This document shows positions 30,677 to 60,770 of a stretch of 64,000 nucleotides of DNA, in pieces. The notes beneath the pieces were generated by a model. The model was not told the origin of the DNA. It saw nothing but the letters and a program-made list of their open reading frames with translations, and did no database searches. The position numbers and the translations under genes are program-made. Within the stretch, counting starts at the first letter, position 1. Every line of letters starts with the position of its first letter. The stretch is from an uncultured Gemmatimonadota bacterium (lineage in GTDB: Bacteria > JAAXHH01), in contig OX638340.1 in assembly GCA_951812955.1 (NCBI GenBank), forward strand, positions 1 through 64,000, read 5' to 3'.

Positions 30677-31189
30677 GAGTATCCGTTTCTTGCACGATTA
30701 AGGTTGACTCCGACCGAACCTGGCTGTTACGCAAGTAGGCCGGTACGACAAGGCTCGCTACGGTACCGCCGCAAAAAGTCACTGATGCGCACCAGTTTCG
30801 AATAGATGCTGATGGACCTGGTGAGCGGGGATGGGCGCGAATGCTCGCAGCGCGATAAATGACAGATTACGAATTAAGATCTCGGAATCAAAACCCATTC
30901 TTAACGTGTGTTAGGGAAAAGAAGAGGGGTAAATGCGCGACACGCTGGTTTTTAGGCTACCAAATGAACGCGTATTTTGATTTCTATTCGATCACCAGGA
31001 GCTAAATCAGTCTGCATGGGTTGACGGGAATAACACTTTACTGTAAAAATGGTTTGGTTTAATAACTTACATTACAAATTCTGCTACTAACGTAAGTCTG
31101 ACTCCAATTAGCATTCCACGTAGCCCGAACTCACGTAGCGTATCAGGAGTGCTATTCTTCCACAACCTGCCCGTGAGGAGAACGCAAAG

Positions 31190-48398: not shown

Positions 48399-48623
48399 TC
48401 GGGTTGAAGTGATCCGCAAGGAGAGTCCGGCACCGGGAGCGCGGGAGGATCGAGCGCGCCGGGAGCGCGGGAAAGAAGTTGCCGGATCCCCATGTACCGG
48501 TGTACAGTACAGGGATAACCGGGCGCGCATGAGGTTTTGGAACATCGCGATCCACGACCCGCGCCAGAGGTATATACCGTCACGTGGCCCCTTCCGGTCA
48601 CTTCGCCTTACGTACGAACCGCC

Positions 48624-50330
48624 ATGTCTGAAACGAACTTTGATCCCGATCCGCGGCTGAGCGCGCCGATGCGCCGGCATCTCCGTACCCTCGATCTGGA
48701 TACGGTGGATGCCTACAGGAACTGGTGCCGTGAAAACGGATTCAACGCCCGCCTGAACAAGACTCTGCCACAGCGCCGAAAGGAACTGGCCTCGGCGCGG
48801 AGGACCACGAAACAGCATCGGATCGATTCCGAACTCGAGGCGCATATCCGTGCGCTGGCTCTCGGCACGATCGCGGAGTACCAGGCCTGGTGCCGGACGC
48901 ATGGCGTGGGAGACGGCCTTCAGAAGAGCAAGGCCCAGCGGCGCCAGGAGATCACGCTTGCGCGGCAGTCGCGAAACCGCGAGTTCGCCGAGCGGTCGAC
49001 CACCAGCCAGCACAGGCGTCGCCGAAAGGACATGTTGAAACGGATCGCCGCCGGTGAGATCGGCGACATGGAGCTCACCAGCCCCGTTCTGCTCAGGGTG
49101 CATCACCTCTTTCACAACGCGCCGTTCGATCCGGAGGCCAGGACGGCCTTCCTGTCGCTTCTTCTGCACGTCGAAAAACATGGAAGACTTTTTCATATCA
49201 AACCCGCCGTGCCTCAATACGGGCCGCAGCCGTACAACAATTTCGTGGACGGACTCGCGTCGCTGGCCGCCTGGCATGACCGCTGGATCCGGAAGGTCGA
49301 GGACTGGAAACCGGATAGCCACAACGGAAGGCGGCAGTTCGGCGCGTTGGCGCGCCATCTCCTGGCCGAATACGACGTGCCGTCGTGCATGGATACGGCG
49401 TACTTCACCGGATTGGATCCAGGCGCGAGAATCCGGCAGGGTTGGTTCGTTCACGTCGGTGGAGGCAAGAACATCAGGAAGGCTTCCATTCCGTTGCGAT
49501 TTACGAAGCGCATGGCCCACGAATTCATCGTTTCCGCCCCGTCTCAATACACGGTGGACGCGGCCCTTCGCTGGGCACAGGTGATCGGGATGGGAGGAGA
49601 CGACCTGTTAGCGGAGGCGGTCTGCGACTCGATGCTTGGGGAAGCGGTCGGGGAGGAGCCTTTCTGGGAGACCGTCCTGCACTTTTTCGTGAACAATCCC
49701 ATGCTCGACGTGGCGCATGTCGGTCCGATCATCGATTATGTCCATCACCAGCGGCATGTCGGTCAGGAGCGGCGGAATCCGGACGGAAGCGTTCGTCTCA
49801 TCGATCCCCCCGATCCGGATTTCACCATGAAGGGCCGTACGCCCGAATCCATGTTGCGGCGGGTGGAAGCCTGGCACGCCTCGATATCCAAGGCCTCGGT
49901 GAAGACGCCCAGAACCTGGCCGTCGTCCGGGATCCAGGGATTCGAGTGGGTGGATGAGGACGAAAGGGCGGGCGAGATCCGCAATTGGGCGATCGAGGAG
50001 GTTCTCAACGAACGGGCCCTATCGGAAGAGGGCAAGGCCATGCGGCATTGCGTGGCCACCTACAGGACCTCGTGCGCCAACGGCCACCGGTCCATCTGGT
50101 CATTGAAGGTGAGTTACACGAGTTCCGGCACCGTTCGCCGCGTCCTGACCATAGAACTGATCAATAACAGGAGGTACATCCGGCAGGTGCGCGGCAAAAG
50201 CAATTCCCGGCCCCTGGACGCCCACAGCGGTCGCGCCCAGGAAGGGTGGGACGTATTGCTCCGGTGGGCAAACCAGGAAGGCCTGACGCTACCTAGGGAA
50301 GGGTCGCCGTTCATGAGGAGATTGCATTAG
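48624..50330 (+). CDS. PcfJ-like domain protein (568 aa) with a duplicated N-terminal ~38-aa motif
   Basis: Trimmed to ATG 48624. The C-terminal 'EGKAMRHCVATYRTSCANGHRSIWSLK...TIELINNRRYIRQVRGKSN' resembles the PcfJ-like family, which has an invariant Cys. The N-terminal tandem motif is described in findings. Confidence 0.55.
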   Translation: MSETNFDPDPRLSAPMRRHLRTLDLDTVDAYRNWCRENGFNARLNKTLPQRRKELASARRTTKQHRIDSELEAHIRALALGTIAEYQAWCRTHGVGDGLQKSKAQRRQEITLARQSRNREFAERSTTSQHRRRRKDMLKRIAAGEIGDMELTSPVLLRVHHLFHNAPFDPEARTAFLSLLLHVEKHGRLFHIKPAVPQYGPQPYNNFVDGLASLAAWHDRWIRKVEDWKPDSHNGRRQFGALARHLLAEYDVPSCMDTAYFTGLDPGARIRQGWFVHVGGGKNIRKASIPLRFTKRMAHEFIVSAPSQYTVDAALRWAQVIGMGGDDLLAEAVCDSMLGEAVGEEPFWETVLHFFVNNPMLDVAHVGPIIDYVHHQRHVGQERRNPDGSVRLIDPPDPDFTMKGRTPESMLRRVEAWHASISKASVKTPRTWPSSGIQGFEWVDEDERAGEIRNWAIEEVLNERALSEEGKAMRHCVATYRTSCANGHRSIWSLKVSYTSSGTVRRVLTIELINNRRYIRQVRGKSNSRPLDAHSGRAQEGWDVLLRWANQEGLTLPREGSPFMRRLH

Positions 50331-50569: not shown

Positions 50570-51130
50570 ATGCGCCAATCCAGGGACCTTTCGGGAATGC
50601 CATATATCGAATCAATAACCTTTCTCGCCGCGATCACAGGCTTTGCCGGGTTGACCGCAAATATGGTCCTGGTCGCGGCAAACCGCCACCGGCGATATCA
50701 CATGATTCCGGTCGCTCTGATCGTTTTCGCCCATGTCCTTCTCGTCTGGCACTTCAGGTACGAATGGGAGATCGCCCAGGCCACGAGAAACGGCTACGCG
50801 GGGTTCGTGATATTTCATACCGCCCTGCTGGGCATCCTGTCCGCCCCGCTGGTCGGAAGCCGGCTGGCAAGGCGGCTCGTGGCCTTCTCGTTCTGCGTCG
50901 CCGCCATGGGCGCCAGCGGAGCCGTACTGCGCTACGAAGAAGTGGCGATCTATCGCCTGCCGGTTCTTGTTTTCGACCTCGCGGGACTAACCGCGCTGGC
51001 CTATTGGATGTTCAGGCCATGCGGACCAGCGAACGAGTTTTACAGACGGTATTTTGGCGTGAACCGGTACGAAAGGGAACCGGGCCGCAGCGTAGGGGCT
51101 GAAAACCGGCAAAACGACCGGGGAGACTGA
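50570..51130 (+). CDS. Hypothetical membrane protein (~5 TM, 186 aa)
   Basis: Hydrophobic helices are 'ITFLAAITGFAGLTANMVLVAA', 'MIPVALIVFAHVLLVW', 'FVIFHTALLGILSAPLV', 'LVAFSFCVAAMGASGAV' and 'LPVLVFDLAGLTALAYW'. I recognise no family. The start may be ATG 50597. Confidence 0.55.
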   Translation: MRQSRDLSGMPYIESITFLAAITGFAGLTANMVLVAANRHRRYHMIPVALIVFAHVLLVWHFRYEWEIAQATRNGYAGFVIFHTALLGILSAPLVGSRLARRLVAFSFCVAAMGASGAVLRYEEVAIYRLPVLVFDLAGLTALAYWMFRPCGPANEFYRRYFGVNRYEREPGRSVGAENRQNDRGD

Positions 51131-51162: not shown

Positions 51163-51972
51163 ATGATGAACCTGGCTGAACAGAAGGCCTTTTTCGAGGA
51201 AGAGGGATACCTGATCGTCGAGGACCTGCTGTCGGAAGACGAATTGGCCGGATGCCGCGAGGAAATCGAACGGCTGCACCGGTTTTCCGCGGAACTCGAG
51301 GCCGCCGGCGATCCGAGATCTTCGCGTTTCCAGCGCGAACCCTACGCGAAGGGCGCCAACCGTGCGGACGGCCTGCCCGTGCTTCGGAAAATCGAAAACA
51401 CGCGGGAAACCTCGGCGTTTTTTCGCGATCTCTCCGTCCATCCGAACCTGCTTAGCGTGGTGGGAGGGCTGCTCGGTCCCGACCTGCTGCTGTTCCGAAG
51501 CACCCTGATGCTCAAGCCGGCTTTTCACGGCTCCGCACACGCGCCGCACCAGGATTCGGCCTACTGGCCGATAGAACCACCCGTGCTCGTAACCGTCAGC
51601 ATTGCCCTGAACGATGCCACGACCGAGAACGGCTGTTTCTACGTCATCCCCCGAAGCCATACCTGGGGCATGAAAGACTGGGGACATATCGCACAGGCGC
51701 AGGATACGGAGCCGGCGCATGGGCACGACTTGAAGGAGGCGCCCCAGCTCGAGGTGCCGCTGAAGGCTGGAAGCGCGCTGTTTTTCCACAGCCTGATGGT
51801 GCACGGATCCGGTCCCAACAGGTCTCCCGATCCACGCAATACGGCGCTTTACGCCTACTTTCCGCCCGGCGTCCGCTACGTTCCGGGGGAAGGCAGCCCC
51901 AGGGTGAAAACCTATCCGGTGGCGTGCGGTCTGGACGGAAAGAAGACCTTCACGCTTGAGGCCGCGGGTTAG
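51163..51972 (+). CDS. Phytanoyl-CoA dioxygenase (PhyH) family oxygenase, second copy
   Basis: 'FFEEEGYLIVEDLL', 'PHQDSAYW' (HxD) and 'GSALFFHSLMVHGSGPNRS' are present. Confidence 0.8.
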   Translation: MMNLAEQKAFFEEEGYLIVEDLLSEDELAGCREEIERLHRFSAELEAAGDPRSSRFQREPYAKGANRADGLPVLRKIENTRETSAFFRDLSVHPNLLSVVGGLLGPDLLLFRSTLMLKPAFHGSAHAPHQDSAYWPIEPPVLVTVSIALNDATTENGCFYVIPRSHTWGMKDWGHIAQAQDTEPAHGHDLKEAPQLEVPLKAGSALFFHSLMVHGSGPNRSPDPRNTALYAYFPPGVRYVPGEGSPRVKTYPVACGLDGKKTFTLEAAG

Positions 51973-52216
51973 GGTCGTATTCCGGTTCCGTTACGGCCAT
52001 GCTTGCCTACAAACACACATTTATCGATTTATAGTTCCGGTTACAATAAAAATAAACTATATTATAATTATAAATCACATTTAATGATGGCATCCCGGGT
52101 CCGAAGCGGAACGCCATGGCGAGGGCGATTGGCAGGCAAACCAAGCTCCCGCAATGGATGCCGTCCTTATCGGTTCGTTTTCCTGAGACCAGTCAGCACC
52201 GAGTCGGGGAGATTTC

Positions 52217-52396
52217 ATGCGAAACACAGAAGCGCAACAGATCAACGCGGCACTGAATGAATTGCGTGGAGAACTACGCGAGGTAGTCATCCTGTTGTCG
52301 ACGATAGCCAGGTACATAGACGATTTCCGGTACGAGACGCACAAGTTGAACCGGTACTTGCGGAGAATCCCCCGCGAAGATCAGTCCGGGGCCTGA
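52217..52396 (+). CDS. Small ORF (59 aa), below the ORF-track cutoff; hypothetical helical protein
   Basis: ATG 52217 lies 5 nt after GGGGAG (52206-52211), and the stop is TGA 52394-52396. The product is 'MRNTEAQQINAALNELRGELREVVILLSTIARYIDDFRYETHKLNRYLRRIPREDQSGA'. The only evidence is the RBS and an open frame. Confidence 0.4.
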   Translation: MRNTEAQQINAALNELRGELREVVILLSTIARYIDDFRYETHKLNRYLRRIPREDQSGA

Positions 52397-52519
52397 CCCG
52401 CGGTTCCAAGCTGTCCGCGCTGCAGGTGCGCCCCCGTGCTGACCGTGCGATCCATGGAACCCTTGCCGTCCTTGCCCGTCCTTGCCGTCCAGACGATACG
52501 CACCTTCCGTGAGCTTCCT

Positions 52520-53530
52520 ATGTACTATGACCAGGGTTCGTTCGATATTCGATGCGAGTGGGGTGAGGAAGGGCTTCAGGAACTGCTGTCCGGCAGCAGG
52601 GCCGTGGTCATCGTCGACGTCCTGTCGTTTTCCACCAGCGTAGACATCGCGGCGGGCAATGGCGCCCTGGTCTACCCGTGCCGAACGAGGGACCATACGG
52701 CGGCTGCCTATGCCCGGTCGCGTGACGCGCTGTTGGCCAACACCACCCGGGAATTCGAAGGAGGCGGATATTCTCTGTCCCCTTCGTCCCTGGTGAACAT
52801 TCCCGCCGGTACCGCCCTGGTCCTGCCCTCTCCCAACGGGTCGACGCTCTCCCTGTCGACCGGCGATACGCCGACATTCGCGGGTTGCCTAAGGAACGCA
52901 ACGGCCCTTGCGGGCATTTTGCGGCGATACGGAACCGGCATCAGTATAATCCCCGCGGGAGAACGGTGGAAGGAACAACAGACGCTCAGACCGGCGATCG
53001 AAGACCTGGTCGGCGCGGGGGCCGTCATTCACGCGCTGGAGGGCTCCCGTTCACCGGAGGCCGAAACCGCCGCCAGCGCATTTGCGGCGTTCAAGGATGA
53101 CCTGCCGTCGGTCATTGGCGCATCGGGGTCCGGCAAAGAACTGATAGGCAGGGGTTTCGAGGAAGACGTGCGGCTGGCAGCGGCCCTGGACGCGAGCGAC
53201 AGTGTTCCGGTTCTGAAGGATGGGCCTACCGGTCGTCCCGCGAATCCGGCGTCGTGGAGTTGTGACTGCAATGCGGTCTTTGCGGCGGATTCCTTACACT
53301 TCGTAAGCCTTCCACGCACCCAGGCAACCGTGCCCTCGACGGACGTGAAGAAGCCGTTTTCCGGGCTCGGCGATGTACCCGGAAATCGAGTGCATCCCGA
53401 CCGCGCCGTGCCGGCAGATCCCGCTCGGGTCGTTCTCGTGATCGGCCAGAATCTCCTTGATCGTGTCCACGTTGATCGTCCCCCAACGCGACCGGACAAG
53501 CTGCCGGATGCGGTCCAGGCGCGGACATGA
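52520..53530 (+). CDS. 2-phosphosulfolactate phosphatase (ComB) family protein with an anomalous ~100-aa C-terminal tail
   Basis: 'AVVIVDVLSFSTSV', 'SPNGS', 'IIPAGERW', 'EDLVGAGAVI' and 'DVRLAAALDASDSVPVLKDG' match the ~235-aa ComB fold. The frame then stays open to 53530, antisense to the next gene. The start is uncertain (52436, 52454 or 52520). Confidence 0.6.
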   Translation: MYYDQGSFDIRCEWGEEGLQELLSGSRAVVIVDVLSFSTSVDIAAGNGALVYPCRTRDHTAAAYARSRDALLANTTREFEGGGYSLSPSSLVNIPAGTALVLPSPNGSTLSLSTGDTPTFAGCLRNATALAGILRRYGTGISIIPAGERWKEQQTLRPAIEDLVGAGAVIHALEGSRSPEAETAASAFAAFKDDLPSVIGASGSGKELIGRGFEEDVRLAAALDASDSVPVLKDGPTGRPANPASWSCDCNAVFAADSLHFVSLPRTQATVPSTDVKKPFSGLGDVPGNRVHPDRAVPADPARVVLVIGQNLLDRVHVDRPPTRPDKLPDAVQART

Positions 53531-54325
53531 GTCGGGCAGGTGTCCGGATTCGTGATCGGCGAACTCGGAAGTCAGGTAATGGTTGGTATGCAGGCAGGCG
53601 TCCGGATGGGCGTCCTGGTACCGGGCAATCCCTTCGGGCCGTATTTCCACGGTATCGATGCTTCCCTGTCCGTCGCACAGTACCAGGTTGGCGGCCGAGC
53701 AGGTGCGGTGCCTGGCAAGAAGTCCCACGCAGTCCCCGACCGTCCGCTGTTCCAGGACCAGACGCTTGATCGGGTAGTGGGGCAATCCCATCCGCCACGT
53801 ACATCCGTAGAGGGCATTGGCGAAATGGGCTACGCCGTACTCGTTCATTCCTGAATAACCCAGCTGCCCGGCGAATGTGAACATCAGCGCACGGGGCCGG
53901 CCATCGCAGGGTTTTACCCGCAACAGGATCGCGACATCGGCGTATTCCGGCTCTAGATCCTGGTTTTGTCCGGCCAGCGTGTTCCCATCCGCTGTTGCCG
54001 ACCGCGTGAGCGCGAAGGCGGTACAGGCCCCGACCGCCATTTGCGCGGCTTCGGCGCGGGCCTGGCACAGCACGGCTTCCTCCAGGCTGATGCCCGCGCC
54101 AGCCGCCAGTCCTCGCACCTCTTCGGCGAAGGCAGGACTCAGTTGCTCGAACAGCGGCCAGAAACCCATGGCGTTCCGGCACAGCGCATCCCGGGGCCTC
54201 CCGGTCAGCCGCTCGATCCAGAGCAGGTACCGCTGGACGGGACCGGCTGCCTGCGCGCCATGCTGGTAACCCATTTCGTAGCCGCTGCCTTCGACTTCAA
54301 TCAGGGGGAAAGTATGATCGTTCAT
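53294..54325 (-). CDS. Peptidase C45 family (acyl-CoA:6-aminopenicillanic-acid acyltransferase-like Ntn hydrolase)
   Basis: 'IEVEGSGYEMGYQHGAQA' is the N-terminal family motif and 'VGACTAFAL' is a candidate Ntn Cys. 'NQDLEPE', 'GMNEYGVA' and 'HTNHY' are also present. Confidence 0.75.
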   Translation of the reverse strand: MNDHTFPLIEVEGSGYEMGYQHGAQAAGPVQRYLLWIERLTGRPRDALCRNAMGFWPLFEQLSPAFAEEVRGLAAGAGISLEEAVLCQARAEAAQMAVGACTAFALTRSATADGNTLAGQNQDLEPEYADVAILLRVKPCDGRPRALMFTFAGQLGYSGMNEYGVAHFANALYGCTWRMGLPHYPIKRLVLEQRTVGDCVGLLARHRTCSAANLVLCDGQGSIDTVEIRPEGIARYQDAHPDACLHTNHYLTSEFADHESGHLPDSCPRLDRIRQLVRSRWGTINVDTIKEILADHENDPSGICRHGAVGMHSISGYIAEPGKRLLHVRRGHGCLGAWKAYEV

Positions 54326-57300: not shown

Positions 57301-57787
57301 GCATGGCCACTGTGCGGCGTGCCGCACGGGCGTACAGGTGTCCTGCATTGTCCACCGGCCGAGGCGCCGCGCCCATGCGTGAAACCCAGGGCATCCGCCG
57401 TACCAGCATGGCACAGAGCGAATCGATCGTTTGTATTCGAAGGCGCGCGGGATGCTCGGCCAGCCGCCAGTCCAGCGCGTCGTTGCGGGCAACGGCATCC
57501 CTCGCAAGCTGCCAGGTATGGATTTCGTGAGGCGTCGCAGGGCGCGGTCCCGCGGCGCTTCTCAGGGCCGCGACGATCCGATGGCGCATCTCCGCGGCCG
57601 CCTTCCTGGTAAAGGTAATGGCCACGACGGCCTCCGGACGGTCCACCTGTGCCAGCAAGGCCAGGTATCGCTGTATAAGCAATTCGGTCTTGCCGGACCC
57701 CGCGGGCGCCTGGACGATGAACGACCGGGTATGGTCGAGCGCTTGTAGGCGTTGCGCCTGGTCTGCCACGCGTTCAGCCACGGTCAT
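54380..57787 (-). CDS. addA: AddA-type UvrD-family helicase with C-terminal PD-(D/E)XK nuclease
   Basis: Trimmed to ATG 57787. Motifs are 'VQAPAGSGKTELLIQR', 'LLIDEFQDTS', 'LSVNFRS', 'TIHRAKGLEFD', 'LLYVAATRA' and the C-terminal 'IIDYKTS' nuclease motif. Confidence 0.85.
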   Translation of the reverse strand: MTVAERVADQAQRLQALDHTRSFIVQAPAGSGKTELLIQRYLALLAQVDRPEAVVAITFTRKAAAEMRHRIVAALRSAAGPRPATPHEIHTWQLARDAVARNDALDWRLAEHPARLRIQTIDSLCAMLVRRMPWVSRMGAAPRPVDNAGHLYARAARRTVAMLDADETPPDVTGALSRLLSHLDNHFGRVERLLSIMLGTRDQWMRHLSDPANPGAMSESAAPRKHEALRRDLESSLRLVIESALEHVRSAFAEQHRNETVELAGFAAENLRAENRASAIDACIGLSGFPGSDAESLPCWIGFAELFLTAQGTRRRAVNRNHGFPPTDAGRAAKERLARIDLDPVFAESLHELRSLPAPRFEDGQWDVLNALMLLLPVAVAQLRLVFREEGCVDFTEIGIGARAALGPDKVPTDLARSLDFHIRHLLIDEFQDTSQSQYGLLTSLIRDWRPGDGRTLFLVGDPMQSIYGFREAEVGLFLQARKNGVGAIRPIPLALSVNFRSYPRVVVWVNRALRDAFPPDEDILSGAVTYEPSVAFKSEKADSCVRFHPFLVRDQDAEAERVVEVISEAQAERPGETIAVLVSARSHLTGIVSALRENGKRFRAVEIDALGDRPVVRDLMSLTQALLHPGDRLAWLAILRAPWCGLTLKDLEILVGGNAASAVWDLLQDRERRERLSPDAVSRIGRLIPIFADAFTLRGRLPPRRLVEGAWTALGGPECLETRTEREDASAFLDLLERAQDGLGIPDEKEFADDVERLFAPSDVEAGGDVQLLTIHRAKGLEFDTVILPGLGRLPRAEDPKLLLWHEYARGDRSRLLLAPIRATGGDKDPLYAYLGGIESRKRDHERTRLLYVAATRARKCLHLLGHAETDPERGTLKTPGSRTLLARIWNAVEPEFQSMMKDRGEQEPEEDLADAKPRGVPLRRLVAGWTPGPLPENVDLKPRLDPSDPVGHESAHPTFEWVTELQRRVGVVVHRMLQRMYAPDLLNFREDTLRIALRQEGLAGEKLDEAVARATSALGNTVADERGRWILTRHPSDERELALTTFLDGRIQRYVVDRTFVSEGRRWIIDYKTSAHTGGDLEGFLDNEQRRYRDQLEGYASVLQSMYSGPVNLGLYFPMLQGWRAWTYTGNPR

Positions 57788-60425
57788 CCTCCGGTTCCTC
57801 CGTCCCCTGTCCAATTCGGCACAGCGACGGCAGCGCGCAGTGCCTGCAGGTCTGAGCCGGGTCTTTGGGATCCACATGGGCCCGGCCCTCCCGGAAGTCG
57901 CGGCCGAGGCGGTCCAGCACCGTCCTCCAGTCGCCTATGGTCTGTTCCATCGGCGGCTGCTCCTCGGGTACCCGGACCCCCGGCACGATGCCCGGGGACT
58001 CGGCCAACCCCCTGAATCCGGCTTCTCCCGTCCTCAGCCTGGCGAACACGACACCCGCTACCGGCGCATCCGCGCAAACGGCGTATATGGGCAGCTGGGG
58101 ATCATCCGGTCTCGCGCCTTTCCAGTCTGATGGCCCGCATTCGCCGGTCTTGTAATCGAGGATGACCAGTTTCCCGTCCTCCAGGCGATCCACCCGGTCC
58201 GCCCGTATATTCACCTCGATGCCGCCGACTTCAACCGTCCGTCTTTCCTCCTGGTCGACGACCGTGAAGGGCTGCCGAAGGCGTTCCAGGCGCAGCCAGT
58301 CTCCGATGACGGAAATCAACCTGGCCTGCTCGATTTCCGCGAACCGGGGATTTCGCAGGATCCGGCCGCCCAGCATGCCCCGGACTTCGGGTTCGACGTG
58401 CGAACGCACGATTTCCGTCAGCTCCTCTTCAGTCACTTCGAGCAGCCCCCCGTGAGACTTGAGCCGTCCCCACACCCGTTCGAGAACGCGATGGACGAGC
58501 AGTCCCCGCTCGAGTGCGTTCAGTCCGGATTCAGGTTCCTCCAGCGCCCTGGCGCCAAGGCGCATTTCTGCAAATGCCTTGAATGGACAGGCCGCCTGGA
58601 GCTTGAACAGGAAGGTCCCGCCCCCGAGCGCCATATCGTCGCACGGCGGTCCGTAGTGGTCGTCCACCATCTCCAGCACGGAAGCGCTTCGGAGTCGTTC
58701 CCCGTCACCGGGCGACAGCTGGATCCCCAGTTCAGCAGCCGAGGTTTCGGGCAACATGCTTACGAGCGGGCTGACGCGCAGGTCCGTGTCCTCTTCCCGC
58801 TCCGGATAGCTGACGACGACGGAACGCGCGGCCGAAAGAAGGCGTCCTGTGAGCGTCCGGGTGAGTTCGAGTTCCCGTTCAGGCGACGATCCGGGGAGGT
58901 CGTAACGGCGTTGAAGACGAAGTGGAATGAACGGATCCGGTGCGGGATCGGCCGGCCACGCGCCGTCATGCATGCCCATCATCCAGAGCCGGTCGAAACG
59001 CAGGCCCGAGCTTTCTAAAACACCCAGAATCTGCACGGGGGCCGGCGTGGATTCCGGTTGAAACAACCTGGCCGAAGCGAGATTTCTCAGCATGGACACC
59101 GCCGCGTGGCGTGTTACGCGGCCGGACACGGCGTCCAGACCGGCCAGCTCGGAGAGCAACTCGTGCCAGACTTCCAGGGTCTGGTATTCGATACTGTCGA
59201 GCGTGCGGTCACCGGGCCATCCAATGTCGCGTAGGAACCCCGACAGGACCGGAGCCCAGTCGCTTGGCAGCCGCGGGGCCTGAATCGCCTTGTACTTCTC
59301 TGCCCATGTCCCACACAGGGACGTGAATACGGGACACCCGTCGGCGTCCCCTCGTCTGCCGGCCAACCCGATCAACTCCGATATGGAGACATCCGGTGCT
59401 CCTCGGGCGCGCAGAGCGGCGTCCAGCATGGCCCGGCGGGTCATTTCCTCCGCGGCCCCGGGTAGAAACGGAGACCGGAGTACACGGCCCGCAAGCTCGA
59501 CGGCGATATCCCCGGGGTCGATACCGAGGAACAGCAACGCCGTCTCGATTACGGGGTATTCATCGAGAGGCAGCCCCAGGGAGATGTTGAAGCATCGCGC
59601 CGGGTCGAGGTCAGGCCGGAGCCGGTCGCGGGGATGAAACACCTCGCCGAATACGCGCTCGATCTCACTTCTACGCCGTTCCAGTCCGGGCACGATGATG
59701 CCGATTCGGTACGCCGGGTCATGGGCGTCCGGATCGATTTCCACACACCCGCGGGCCCATTCTGCGGCGGCACGGAGCTCGCGGCCGGCGTCGGCAAGGC
59801 CCAGGCGCGCGGCGTCGCCGGCTTCATCAGGGCGCGCGCTTTCCCGGATCTCCACGCCGCGCCTTGCGAGGGCGTCGATCAGGCTCTGTTGGACAGGCGA
59901 GAGTTCCAGGAATCCCGCGAATTCGACTTCTTCGGGAACGGGAAACGCTTCCTGGTCGATGAGGTCACCCACAGCCGCGGTCAGTTCGGCGTTCGAAATC
60001 CAGTCGTTGCGGCGGCAACGATCGCGAAACGCTTCGGCCCAAGACAGAAAGGTCCGGGCGTCCGCGGATTCATTCCACGCCTCGTCGTCGACCGGCAGCG
60101 CCCAGCCGCACAGATGGTCCCAGGACCTGGTGGCGGCCTCAACGGTCGAAGGGACGTCCAGCAGGCTTTCAGATTCTACAGGCCCATCAGGCCCGGATCG
60201 AATGATGTTTTCCCAAATCAACCGTTCTTCAGCCGGCCGGAGCAGGCGTGCCAGCGTGGCCGGGTGATCGTAGAACAGCCCGTTCTGCCAGGTCTCCGAA
60301 AGCCATGCGGAGAGCGGCAGGATCTGTGCGGTTGGCCACGTGGTTTGCCCCGCCGTCTCCTGGTCCCGGTCATGGCTCAGGCGGAGATCGCGTGCGAGGC
60401 GCGTGGTCGCAGTGATAACGGTCAT
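57774..60425 (-). CDS. addB: AddB-type PD-(D/E)XK nuclease subunit with a C-terminal Fe-S Cys cluster
   Basis: The C-terminal 'ADRVDRLEDGKLVILDYKTG' nuclease motif is followed by 'CRHCALPSLC'. The stop overlaps the addA start by 14 bp. The start is ATG 60425 or 60452. Confidence 0.8.
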   Translation of the reverse strand: MTVITATTRLARDLRLSHDRDQETAGQTTWPTAQILPLSAWLSETWQNGLFYDHPATLARLLRPAEERLIWENIIRSGPDGPVESESLLDVPSTVEAATRSWDHLCGWALPVDDEAWNESADARTFLSWAEAFRDRCRRNDWISNAELTAAVGDLIDQEAFPVPEEVEFAGFLELSPVQQSLIDALARRGVEIRESARPDEAGDAARLGLADAGRELRAAAEWARGCVEIDPDAHDPAYRIGIIVPGLERRRSEIERVFGEVFHPRDRLRPDLDPARCFNISLGLPLDEYPVIETALLFLGIDPGDIAVELAGRVLRSPFLPGAAEEMTRRAMLDAALRARGAPDVSISELIGLAGRRGDADGCPVFTSLCGTWAEKYKAIQAPRLPSDWAPVLSGFLRDIGWPGDRTLDSIEYQTLEVWHELLSELAGLDAVSGRVTRHAAVSMLRNLASARLFQPESTPAPVQILGVLESSGLRFDRLWMMGMHDGAWPADPAPDPFIPLRLQRRYDLPGSSPERELELTRTLTGRLLSAARSVVVSYPEREEDTDLRVSPLVSMLPETSAAELGIQLSPGDGERLRSASVLEMVDDHYGPPCDDMALGGGTFLFKLQAACPFKAFAEMRLGARALEEPESGLNALERGLLVHRVLERVWGRLKSHGGLLEVTEEELTEIVRSHVEPEVRGMLGGRILRNPRFAEIEQARLISVIGDWLRLERLRQPFTVVDQEERRTVEVGGIEVNIRADRVDRLEDGKLVILDYKTGECGPSDWKGARPDDPQLPIYAVCADAPVAGVVFARLRTGEAGFRGLAESPGIVPGVRVPEEQPPMEQTIGDWRTVLDRLGRDFREGRAHVDPKDPAQTCRHCALPSLCRIGQGTEEPEDDRG

Positions 60426-60734
60426 GGAGGCAATATCCGGATTACACGGCAAGCGGTCTCAGGAATAGATTGGGCGGCGGTGCTGGCAGTCCGCTCGATT
60501 GTGCAGAAAATGCGGGGATAGACGCGCTTGAGGAAAGCAGTTTTTGACCTGGCCGGAATTTGGGGTTGTAATCGAAAGCATTCGCAGATCAAGAATCTCA
60601 TTACGGACCATGTTTGAAATAGATGCGTTACGTCGAGTATAACCGTACAGAAGCTATCTTGCGCAAAAAATTAAATAAAATACATCTAAGTTAAAAATAT
60701 TTGTTACGTATTATTCATTTATCGGATATATTGC

Positions 60735-60770
60735 TTGACATAGCCTAATTGTCACCGGCATAAGTATATA
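60735..60770 (+). promoter_or_regulatory. Possible marR promoter/operator: TTGACA with partial inverted copy TGTCAc, then TAAGTATATA
   Basis: TTGACA at 60735-60740 and 'ttgtcac' at 60749-60755 (5/6 inverted match). The AT-rich -10 candidates at 60761-70 give non-ideal 20-24 nt spacing. Confidence 0.25.

Follow-up and report, generated by a model that had tools for sequence, protein, structure and literature searches.

The locus described here poses the question of whether an AT-rich patch, a long leader and a very short open reading frame (ORF), lying one after the other, make up a regulatory RNA, a toxin-like peptide, or the control region and coding sequence of an ordinary gene. It occupies positions 52,000-52,396 of a 64,000-nucleotide (nt) stretch of DNA from an uncultured Gemmatimonadota bacterium (assembly GCA_951812955.1, contig OX638340.1, positions 1 to 64,000), the whole of which is referred to as the window, and it sits between a PhyH-type dioxygenase gene and a ComB-family gene. 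An earlier interpretation made from the letters alone (the sequence-only reading) had suggested a cis-regulatory RNA or a small regulatory or toxin-like peptide. Comparison with relatives shows the 59-codon ORF to be a genuine gene that codes for a protein, unannotated in the window. The best explanation of the locus would be an independent small-gene transcription unit within a four-gene block on one strand. We hold with fair confidence that this unit stands on its own and is probably strongly expressed, with a sigma-70-type promoter, a long 5' untranslated region (UTR), a leader able to mask the Shine-Dalgarno (SD) sequence, and read-through into ComB.

The ORF opens at ATG 52217, is closed by a TGA at 52394-52396, and follows an SD sequence GGGGAG (52206-52211) by a 5-nt spacer. 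These features, and its length below the ORF cut-off, were as the sequence-only reading had described them. In 5.8 billion proteins, a word-indexed search recovered 21 homologs (76-97% identity, mostly 59 amino acids (aa), 25 invariant columns), among which the sole name was 'hypothetical protein' and on none of which a Pfam domain was found. For comparison, 30 loci were fetched from public assemblies (labelled in the style L001-L030); their sources are sponge and coral metagenome-assembled genomes (MAGs) labelled Latescibacterota or Gemmatimonadota, plus long-read MAGs. Each of the 30 loci carries the ORF intact; its identity (78-98%) covers the range seen for PhyH, ComB and the C45 acyltransferase, and gene callers placed it at the same position in every locus. 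The 59-aa length was kept, and an SD of the form GGGAG or GGAGAG stood 5-7 nt before the start in all loci. Against 15 orthologs, the ratio of nonsynonymous to synonymous rates (dN/dS) was 0.04-0.16, with dS up to ~1.8, and variable columns at codon positions 1, 2 and 3 numbered 22, 9 and 36, so that the third position is dominant. These two patterns settle the coding strand and frame and dispose of the long minus-strand ORFs that overlap the gene. The locus thus shows purifying selection together with a conserved start, stop and ribosome-binding site, as a protein-coding gene does. Its GC content (~0.50-0.58) compares with 0.62 for the window.

The product is, as predicted, a single long amphipathic helix of the coiled-coil type; the sequence-only reading had already noted an amphipathic helix. 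AlphaFold2 run on the family alignment gave one helix, residues 2-50, with a mean predicted local distance difference test score of 90.8. An unbroken 3-4 heptad runs along the family alignment (L13, L16, L20, V23, L27, I30, I34, F37, T41, L44, L48), with a/d positions that are invariant or nearly so across homologs; the predicted product therefore carries the continuous a/d heptad on a long helix that marks coiled-coil proteins. The polar surface is also very highly conserved (R17, G18, E22, S28, T29, R32, D35, D36, R38, Y39, E40, T41, N45), which suggests that the small protein binds a conserved partner. No hydrophobic membrane-spanning segment was found in it; the longest apolar run, VVILLSTIA, covers 9 residues within the charged helix. 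Searches against Pfam, NCBIfam, PHROG and PADLOC profiles gave no match above the curated cut-off (Pfam, PHROG and PADLOC also at E ≤ 10, where only noise appeared). The best sub-threshold profile match, DUF6674 (E = 0.007, 11 of 22 members), was judged typical coiled-coil noise. A PDB profile search found no relative of the small protein, and Foldseek against PDB returned 0 matches, which is what a lone helix would give. When 1.84 billion cluster representatives were scanned exhaustively with an HMMER profile, the only matches were the family itself (two representatives) and one spurious match, P0022, a 1228-aa tandem-repeat translation that was rejected as a homolog because the match is composition-driven. 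Since all searches for relatives failed, we regard the family as an orphan; by the distribution of its members it is confined to one narrow lineage of uncultured sponge- or coral-associated bacteria.

The AT-rich patch upstream may be read as a promoter module, made up of an AT-rich upstream tract, a -35 element, a -10 element and about 25 nt of AU-rich initial transcribed sequence. That the patch is the most AT-rich stretch of the window holds at a length of 40 nt, for which 52045-52084 ranks first (92.5% AT; mean GC of the window 61.6%), and fails at 60-100 nt, where it ranks second behind 60655-60754. In 23 of 25 orthologs from three clades (A, B and C, described below), the -35-like hexamer lies exactly 62 nt before the GATGG of a conserved box (TGATGGCATCCCGG), and this rigid module is shared by genomes whose synonymous sites are saturated. 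The two exceptions (L013, L017) carry 11-16-nt tandem duplications (CGTTTATTGTC) just before the box and are the sole breaks in the spacing. The hexamer reads TTGAAT or GTGAAT elsewhere in clades A and B and TTGACT in clade C. The -10-like element TAAAAAT (ATAAAAAT; consensus ATAAaAAT) is conserved at ≥ 80% per column over the three clades, and the ungapped block alignment continues with conserved TATAT, AAtTATAaaT and TTtAaTGATGG. TTGAaT-17/18-(T)AAaAAT is thus positionally conserved in all three clades, and in L010 the promoter scan independently called TTGACT-18-AAAAAT at the module positions. The spacer from the PhyH stop to the module, variable in length and only 0.3-0.5 identical between clades, has the character of a neutral spacer.

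A second candidate promoter, GTTACA-17-TATAAT (10 of 12 positions), is the best sigma-70 match in the window. It is not conserved: no call was made in L001, the call in L022 is a shifted GTTACA-18-TATATT, and clade B has AGTAAC at the aligned position. Hexamers of the sigma-70 type with 16-18-nt spacing are accordingly present, a single match being about as frequent as in shuffled sequence (mean 0.7). In the window's subclade, with its degraded form of the conserved -35, GTTACA-17-TATAAT may serve as a second promoter or as a substitute, and the local TATAAT may have taken over. A sigma-54 promoter was rejected on reading the sequence: the TGGCAT of the 5' box lacks the GC that such a promoter needs at +10 spacing. 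The direct repeat CACATTTATCGAT / CACATTTAATGAT was likewise rejected as a target-site duplication; it reflects the -35 region and the 5' box. Two further AT-rich islands of 100 nt each were observed, at 60655-60754 (76% AT) and 31016-31115 (67% AT). The former lies in the intergenic region of two divergent ORFs, one of 892 aa on the minus strand (57774-60452) and one on the plus strand from 60854; it contains TTGACA, and the promoter scan called no full sigma-70 match there.

Downstream of the module, the leader varies in length from 49 to 171 nt (counted 3' of the 5' box) and separates the orthologs into three clades. Clade A (the window and 9 others) has a helix, P1, that encloses an internal domain of ~47 nt; in clade B (8 sequences) P1 is a plain hairpin with an 8-nt loop, CUUCCGCA; clade C holds 4 long forms with a different-looking long domain and a weak P1, and short forms (L018, L020, L029) with only ~50 nt between the 5' box and the ATG. 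The 5' box is the most conserved non-coding element and was found in 25 of 26 loci, including short-leader forms without a 3' partner. The block that includes the SD is conserved at the level of coding sequence. The internal domain is present in clade A, shares the core GGGCGATCGG with clade C, and is missing from clade B and the short clade C forms; because clades A and C share the core, the domain is ancestral, with a loss in clade B, and is no recent insertion. With a covariance model built from clades A and B, the leaders of clade C were recovered where homology would place them (E = 3e-7 to 8e-5), and a scan of 237 kb, the whole window included, gave no further copy of the leader. No second copy of the 5' box, the internal domain or the SD block was found in the window or in any locus, and the idea of a repeated or mobile element was rejected. 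Overall, conservation of the leader shows in its sequence, and not demonstrably in its structure. Leaders are prone to slippage: besides the duplications in L013 and L017, a 16-nt unit, CCTGTTCCTGCACGCA, is repeated three to four times in L012 (3915-3965), and L007 (3890-3925) has a duplicated CACCGGGCTC(T/C)CG.

The sequence-only reading had proposed a structured cis-regulatory RNA of ~75 nt, and here its parts fared differently. The closing helix GGCATCC (52089-52095) with GGATGCC (52156-52162) is present and extends to 10 base pairs (P1). In clades A and B the arms of P1 form a duplex of -12 to -20 kcal/mol; for the window's 80-nt P1 element the folding energy is -34.6 kcal/mol (z = -1.94, a stability reached by 8 of 200 shuffles), and the clade B P1 hairpins have z = -2.1 to -3.5. 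P1 carries one A-U to G-C double change (L007, L023) and is otherwise without covariation. The inner hairpins exist in the window and are not kept in its closest relatives, and the domain that holds them is lost in the sister clade: TCCG/CGGA is broken or wobble-only in L003, L007, L022 and L028, and TTGG/CCAA pairs in the window alone, so both were rejected. An alternative inner stem, CCAUGGC/GCCAUG, read from the alignment, occurs in L023 and L028; it is disrupted and uncompensated in the window's own subclade and was also rejected. In RNAalifold the predicted pairs of the internal domain are mostly broken and not compensated, and the covariation terms computed per clade are ~0 or positive. 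No covarying pairs that would support a conserved riboswitch-like structure were found, in a comparison whose power is limited (effective sequence number of the covariance model 2.1). Rfam 15 gave 0 matches at the gathering threshold in the whole 64-kb window, and at E ≤ 10 only noise from small nucleolar RNAs (snoRNAs) and viral UTRs, far below threshold, in 51900-52600. The best local sub-threshold match is the Giardia snoRNA GlsR16 at 52381-52446 (21.5 bits, where the gathering score is 100; E = 0.024), which covers a GC-rich hairpin just past the small-ORF stop and was treated as noise. A search for transfer RNA and transfer-messenger RNA found none. Taken together, these results leave the proposed structured RNA unsupported; a leader RNA structure is compatible with the data at hand.

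A pairing that would mask the SD received separate attention. In partition-function folding, the SD pairs with the pyrimidine tract at P > 0.8 in most of clade A and part of clade B (~10 of 16 folded leaders). RNAalifold pairs CCUGA with UCGGG, in a helix of UCCUGA (52178-52186) with the UCGGGA of the ribosome-binding site. This pairing is 95% kept in clades A and B, through sequence conservation alone. In addition, most clade A and B sequences have a CGGGAG in the ribosome-binding site to which CUCCCG (52146-52151), on reading the sequence, is complementary.

From these observations we propose the following course of events. Transcription would start near 52060 (predicted 52059-52062) from the conserved module promoter or, in the window's subclade, possibly near 52075 from the local TATAAT. 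The resulting 5' UTR would be ~140-155 nt long and would begin with ~25 AU-rich nt, followed by the P1 hairpin (52086-52165), which may act at the RNA level as a 5'-proximal hairpin that stabilises the transcript or binds a regulator. The pyrimidine tract UUUUCCUGA (52178-52186), CUCCCG, or both would pair with the strong SD UCGGGGAGA and damp translation initiation, and transcription would continue into ComB, with no terminator past the small ORF. The small-protein unit would on this account probably be under translational or stability control. That the small gene and ComB share a transcript in clades A and B is suggested by the short spacers in relatives, which range from 25 nt (L007, L008) to >170 nt with differing repeat number, and by the terminator scan, which found no terminator between the two. 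The succession of AT tract, long leader and small ORF noted in the sequence-only reading is borne out by the relatives, with their fixed-length module, purifying selection and conserved leader parts.

Several observations weigh against this account. The start site and the choice of promoter are both inferred, the conserved -35 has degraded to TCGATT in the window, and the -10-like hexamer has no canonical final T (read as TAAAAA) or first T (read as AAAAAT). The rigid spacing from promoter to box would fit an operator at the DNA level too. The whole 146-nt leader, with z = -0.18, is no stabler than shuffled sequence; together with the z of -1.94 for the P1 element, this makes single-sequence structure borderline at best. 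Explicit pair counting over 18 sequences found 91.8% of cells paired, where column shuffles give 91.8 +/- 0.5, and a double change in one pair, where 1.0 would be expected. For the window itself, folding predicts no pairing of the SD with the pyrimidine tract, and in clade C, where P1 is weak, a double change from U.G to GxA breaks the SD-sequestering pairing. The short-leader forms L018, L020 and L029 keep the 5' box without the 3' arm, and L025 has neither AT module nor P1. In L025 (2862-3000) the whole module, the 5' box and the P1 5' arm are lost, with the 3' leader, the SD and an intact small ORF kept; the gene lies 140 nt past PhyH and, because the module is absent, must be read through from PhyH. 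As the short-leader forms and L025 show, the gene can do without the leader structure.

Table 1. Features of the small-gene locus, with positions in the 64,000-nt window
Feature	Positions	Strand	Remarks
AT-rich module (promoter and AU-rich initial transcribed region, as read)	52024-52085	+	fixed length of 62 nt; aligns without gaps in 23 orthologous sequences, three clades
-35-like hexamer TCGATT	52024-52029	+	equal position in all three clades; degraded in the window's subclade
Window-specific sigma-70 match GTTACA-17-TATAAT	52040-52068	+	10/12
-10-like TAAAAAT	52047-52053	+	17-18 nt past the -35-like hexamer
5' box TTAATGATGGCATCCCGG	52081-52098	+	identity of clade A vs B 0.89
P1 5' arm GATGGCATCC	52086-52095	+	kept in clades A and B
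Internal domain	52096-52145	+	~47-50 nt; holds the inner hairpins of the sequence-only reading; identity of clade A vs B 0-0.18
Motif CTCCCGCA	52146-52153	+	directly 5' of the P1 3' arm; forms the loop in clade B
P1 3' arm GGATGCCGTC	52156-52165	+	10-bp helix with the 5' arm
Pyrimidine tract TTTTCCTGA	52178-52186	+	candidate anti-Shine-Dalgarno strand
Conserved block GACCAGTCAGCACCGAGTCGGGGAGATTTC	52187-52216	+	includes SD GGGGAG; identity of clade A vs B 0.81-0.82
Small gene	52217-52396	+	59 aa; protein MRNTEAQQINAALNELRGELREVVILLSTIARYIDDFRYETHKLNRYLRRIPREDQSGA, which includes the stretch MRNTEAQQINAALNELR
Spacer, small gene to ComB	52397-52519	+	123 nt; 9-nt tandem repeats CCTTGCCGT at 52461-52490
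ComB-family (2-phosphosulfolactate phosphatase-like) gene	52520-53530	+	Pfam PF04029, E = 7.6e-20
C45 acyltransferase gene	53294-54325	-	convergent with ComB

The main rival explanation takes the 5' box (TAATGATGGCATCCCGG) as the DNA operator of a transcription factor, set at a fixed distance past the promoter, with the complementarity of the 3' arm secondary or incidental. The distance from promoter to box, exactly 62 nt in 23 of 25 orthologs with downstream lengths that vary by >100 nt, and the survival of the box in short-leader forms without a 3' arm fit an operator at least as well as an RNA reading. P1 also lacks covariation, and the invariant part of the box is TAAnGAnGG, not the paired positions 6-9. 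We nevertheless consider the operator unlikely, in view of a 3' arm that stays complementary both across an 8-nt loop (clade B) and across 55-95 nt (clade A), the one A-U to G-C double change in P1, and clade B hairpins whose z is consistently -2.1 to -3.5. No conserved palindrome or repeat symmetry was found within the box, and no regulator gene is adjacent to the small-gene locus.

We think it improbable that the leader is a new RNA that senses a ligand or a protein, in which P1 encloses an ancestral sensor (core GGGCGAUCGG) and CUCCCGCA or the pyrimidine tract switches access to the SD. Such an RNA would account for blocks conserved at coding-sequence level within a UTR of >130 nt, for an internal domain common to clades A and C, and for an SD that folding places in a helix in most leaders of clade A and some of clade B. 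Read from the sequences, CUCCCG complements CGGGAG, and in L024 UUCCUG matches CAGGAG. It would also be expected to leave traces that were not found: no Rfam family matches, there is no covariation, pairs of the inner domain are broken without compensation, and full-domain folding gives z from -0.05 to -1.9. The domain is deleted in clade B and in short clade C forms, L025 lacks the 5' half of the leader with its gene intact, and the element is single-copy, before one gene only.

A more speculative pair of readings, to which we give little credence, is that the small protein and its leader form a lineage-specific autoregulatory pair, or that the ancestral internal domain of the leader is a new ligand-sensing RNA. 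In the autoregulatory version, the near-invariant polar face of the protein, rich in Arg, Tyr and His, would bind the 5' box and CUCCCGCA of its own mRNA or promoter DNA. If true, the protein would represent a new class of small regulator that binds nucleic acids and occurs solely in symbionts of sponges and corals.

That P1 and a U-containing tract after it form an attenuator or terminator, which controls read-through into the small ORF or defines a short small RNA, seems very doubtful. A stable, GC-rich hairpin of 10-13 base pairs is indeed followed by GUCCUUAU in the window, by GUUUCUG in some clade B leaders and by GUUUUGU or GUUUUUCU in clade C. Hairpin strength and U-tract length, however, run in opposite directions: clades A and B have the strongest hairpin and a short tract (3-4 U in 8), clade C the weakest hairpin and the longest tract. 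No conserved anti-terminator alternative was found. A terminator scan of 51500-53000 found no site in the leader, nor was one found in the leaders of L001, L022, L010 and L018; the tail after P1, UCCUUAUC, falls short of the ≥ 5 U in 8 nt that would be required directly after a GC-rich stem-loop.

We give hardly any weight to the idea that the ATGATGG of the 5' box starts a regulatory upstream ORF (uORF), a leader peptide that controls the main ORF. An ATG or GTG does stand at that spot in all but one sequence, mostly as ATGATG in clades A and B, and L024 has ATA there. The frame relative to the main ORF is 0, 1 or 2 depending on the sequence, the stop may come as early as codon 5 or only past codon 58, variable columns (22/24/23) show no 3-nt periodicity, and no SD lies upstream, so that neither a conserved upstream frame nor a conserved stop was found. 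Finally, the reading of the ORF as a chance frame or type I toxin-like peptide, with conservation derived from an overlapping RNA or antisense gene, could draw on its small size, lower GC and overlap with long minus-strand ORFs, and is effectively refuted by the dN/dS of 0.04-0.16 with third-position variation in the plus frame, alongside the conserved start, stop and length, the strong SD with its 5-nt spacer, the charged heptad helix without a hydrophobic transmembrane stretch, and the status of a single-copy syntenic core gene.

The locus was also compared with known systems, and tests for membership in a family were all negative except the generic ones (protein-coding gene, sigma-70-like promoter, heptad helix). 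Small bacterial coiled-coil proteins such as ZapB, SlyX and mature Lpp have ~55-80 residues in one amphipathic heptad helix and are expected as homo-oligomers that bind a partner. By analogy, the small protein resembles them in its single predicted amphipathic helix with a continuous heptad; it differs in having no detectable sequence relationship (Pfam, NCBIfam, PDB profiles and the exhaustive profile search), no signal peptide or lipobox of the kind that Lpp has, and an unusually conserved polar face (RYETHKLNRYL, IDDFRYE). The 5' stem-loops of the ompA type and the ROSE and fourU thermometers are 5'-UTR stabiliser hairpins and SD-sequestering operators. The leader could be likened to them for its long 5' UTR, its stable promoter-proximal hairpin and the SD-pairing pyrimidine tract. 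It differs in that the hairpin would begin ~10-25 nt from the predicted 5' end and not at the end, in that a UUUU run occurs only in the window's subclade, and in that the pairing is supported by sequence conservation only, has no covariation and is broken in clade C.

The cis-regulatory families of Rfam share with the leader an upstream position and a multi-branched predicted fold closed by a long-range helix, but none reaches its gathering score in the 64 kb, and the best sub-threshold matches are eukaryotic snoRNAs and a plant-virus UTR; in addition, covariation is missing here and the core domain is dispensable in sister clades. With type I toxin-antitoxin systems the locus has in common a small unannotated ORF, a long structured 5' UTR and a sequestered SD. 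The small protein, however, is charged and amphipathic rather than a hydrophobic membrane helix, and its gene is syntenic, single-copy and vertically inherited and evolves as fast as the neighbouring enzymes. No antisense RNA gene is evident, antisense RNA as such not having been tested. The type I toxin reading, and with it the toxin-like peptide of the sequence-only reading, is therefore unsupported, because no hydrophobic membrane segment is present.

With respect to the neighbouring genes, the small gene lies directly after the PhyH-type dioxygenase gene in every locus, and the gene order of membrane protein (186 aa), PhyH, small gene and ComB is kept wherever flanks are available, apart from losses of ComB. 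The 186-aa protein (50570-51130) is syntenic, has no family match and is read as a membrane protein from its hydrophobic sequence. Further upstream lies a syntenic 597-aa protein (48537-50330) with a C-terminal PcfJ-like domain (E = 5.5e-10). The conserved start of ComB is ATG 52520, not GTG 52436; the small ORF does end shortly before ComB, as had been noted, at a distance that is 123 nt rather than 40-120. The repeat of this spacer shares TGCCGTCCTT with the region of the P1 3' arm (52159-52168), and tandem units of 9-18 nt occur in the spacer elsewhere (L021, L023, L016, L001, L003), with a copy number that differs per genome.

Relative to L021, the window lacks one base near 53223/53224, in ...AAGGATGG-GCCTACC.... 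With this base gone, the ComB frame passes the normal stop, which ends the protein at 248 aa in relatives, and gains 88 codons that reach into the convergent gene for the C45 acyltransferase; the difference is either an assembly error or a real C-terminal frameshift. L003 and L004 have no ComB, L005 and L019 have a ComB without its first ~93 codons, and L011 gives only a partial match. Since the small ORF and PhyH are intact where ComB is lost or damaged, ComB is decaying in parts of the lineage. In clade C a separate conserved non-coding block of ~110 nt precedes ComB (L010, L013, L017, L018, L020, L024, L025, L029), which clades A and B do not have. In L010 (1336-1365) this block holds a promoter-like TTGACC-18-TACATT after repeated GATCATTGACCGC units, and the ComB of clade C seems to have its own promoter. 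One further observation concerns a 20-nt inverted repeat (51954-51973 / 52392-52411, 80% complementary) that spans from the PhyH stop to the small-ORF stop. It was rejected as a cassette border, having a self-complementary CCGCGG core and not being conserved in clade B, and is probably due to chance.

As it stands, the locus is an ordinary uncharacterised small gene with an ordinary-looking control region. Its value for annotation is that a strongly selected gene lies below the usual ORF cut-off, and that public assemblies miss it or name it 'hypothetical'. The rigid 62-nt module offers a useful, rare and comparatively well-defined example of promoter architecture in an uncultured phylum in which, to our knowledge, no promoter has been mapped so far. 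If the leader is regulatory, the locus would provide a clean single-gene system for study. For the lineage itself, the gene represents a new small-protein family with no relatives outside that one lineage, wedged between a PhyH-type dioxygenase and a ComB-like phosphatase.

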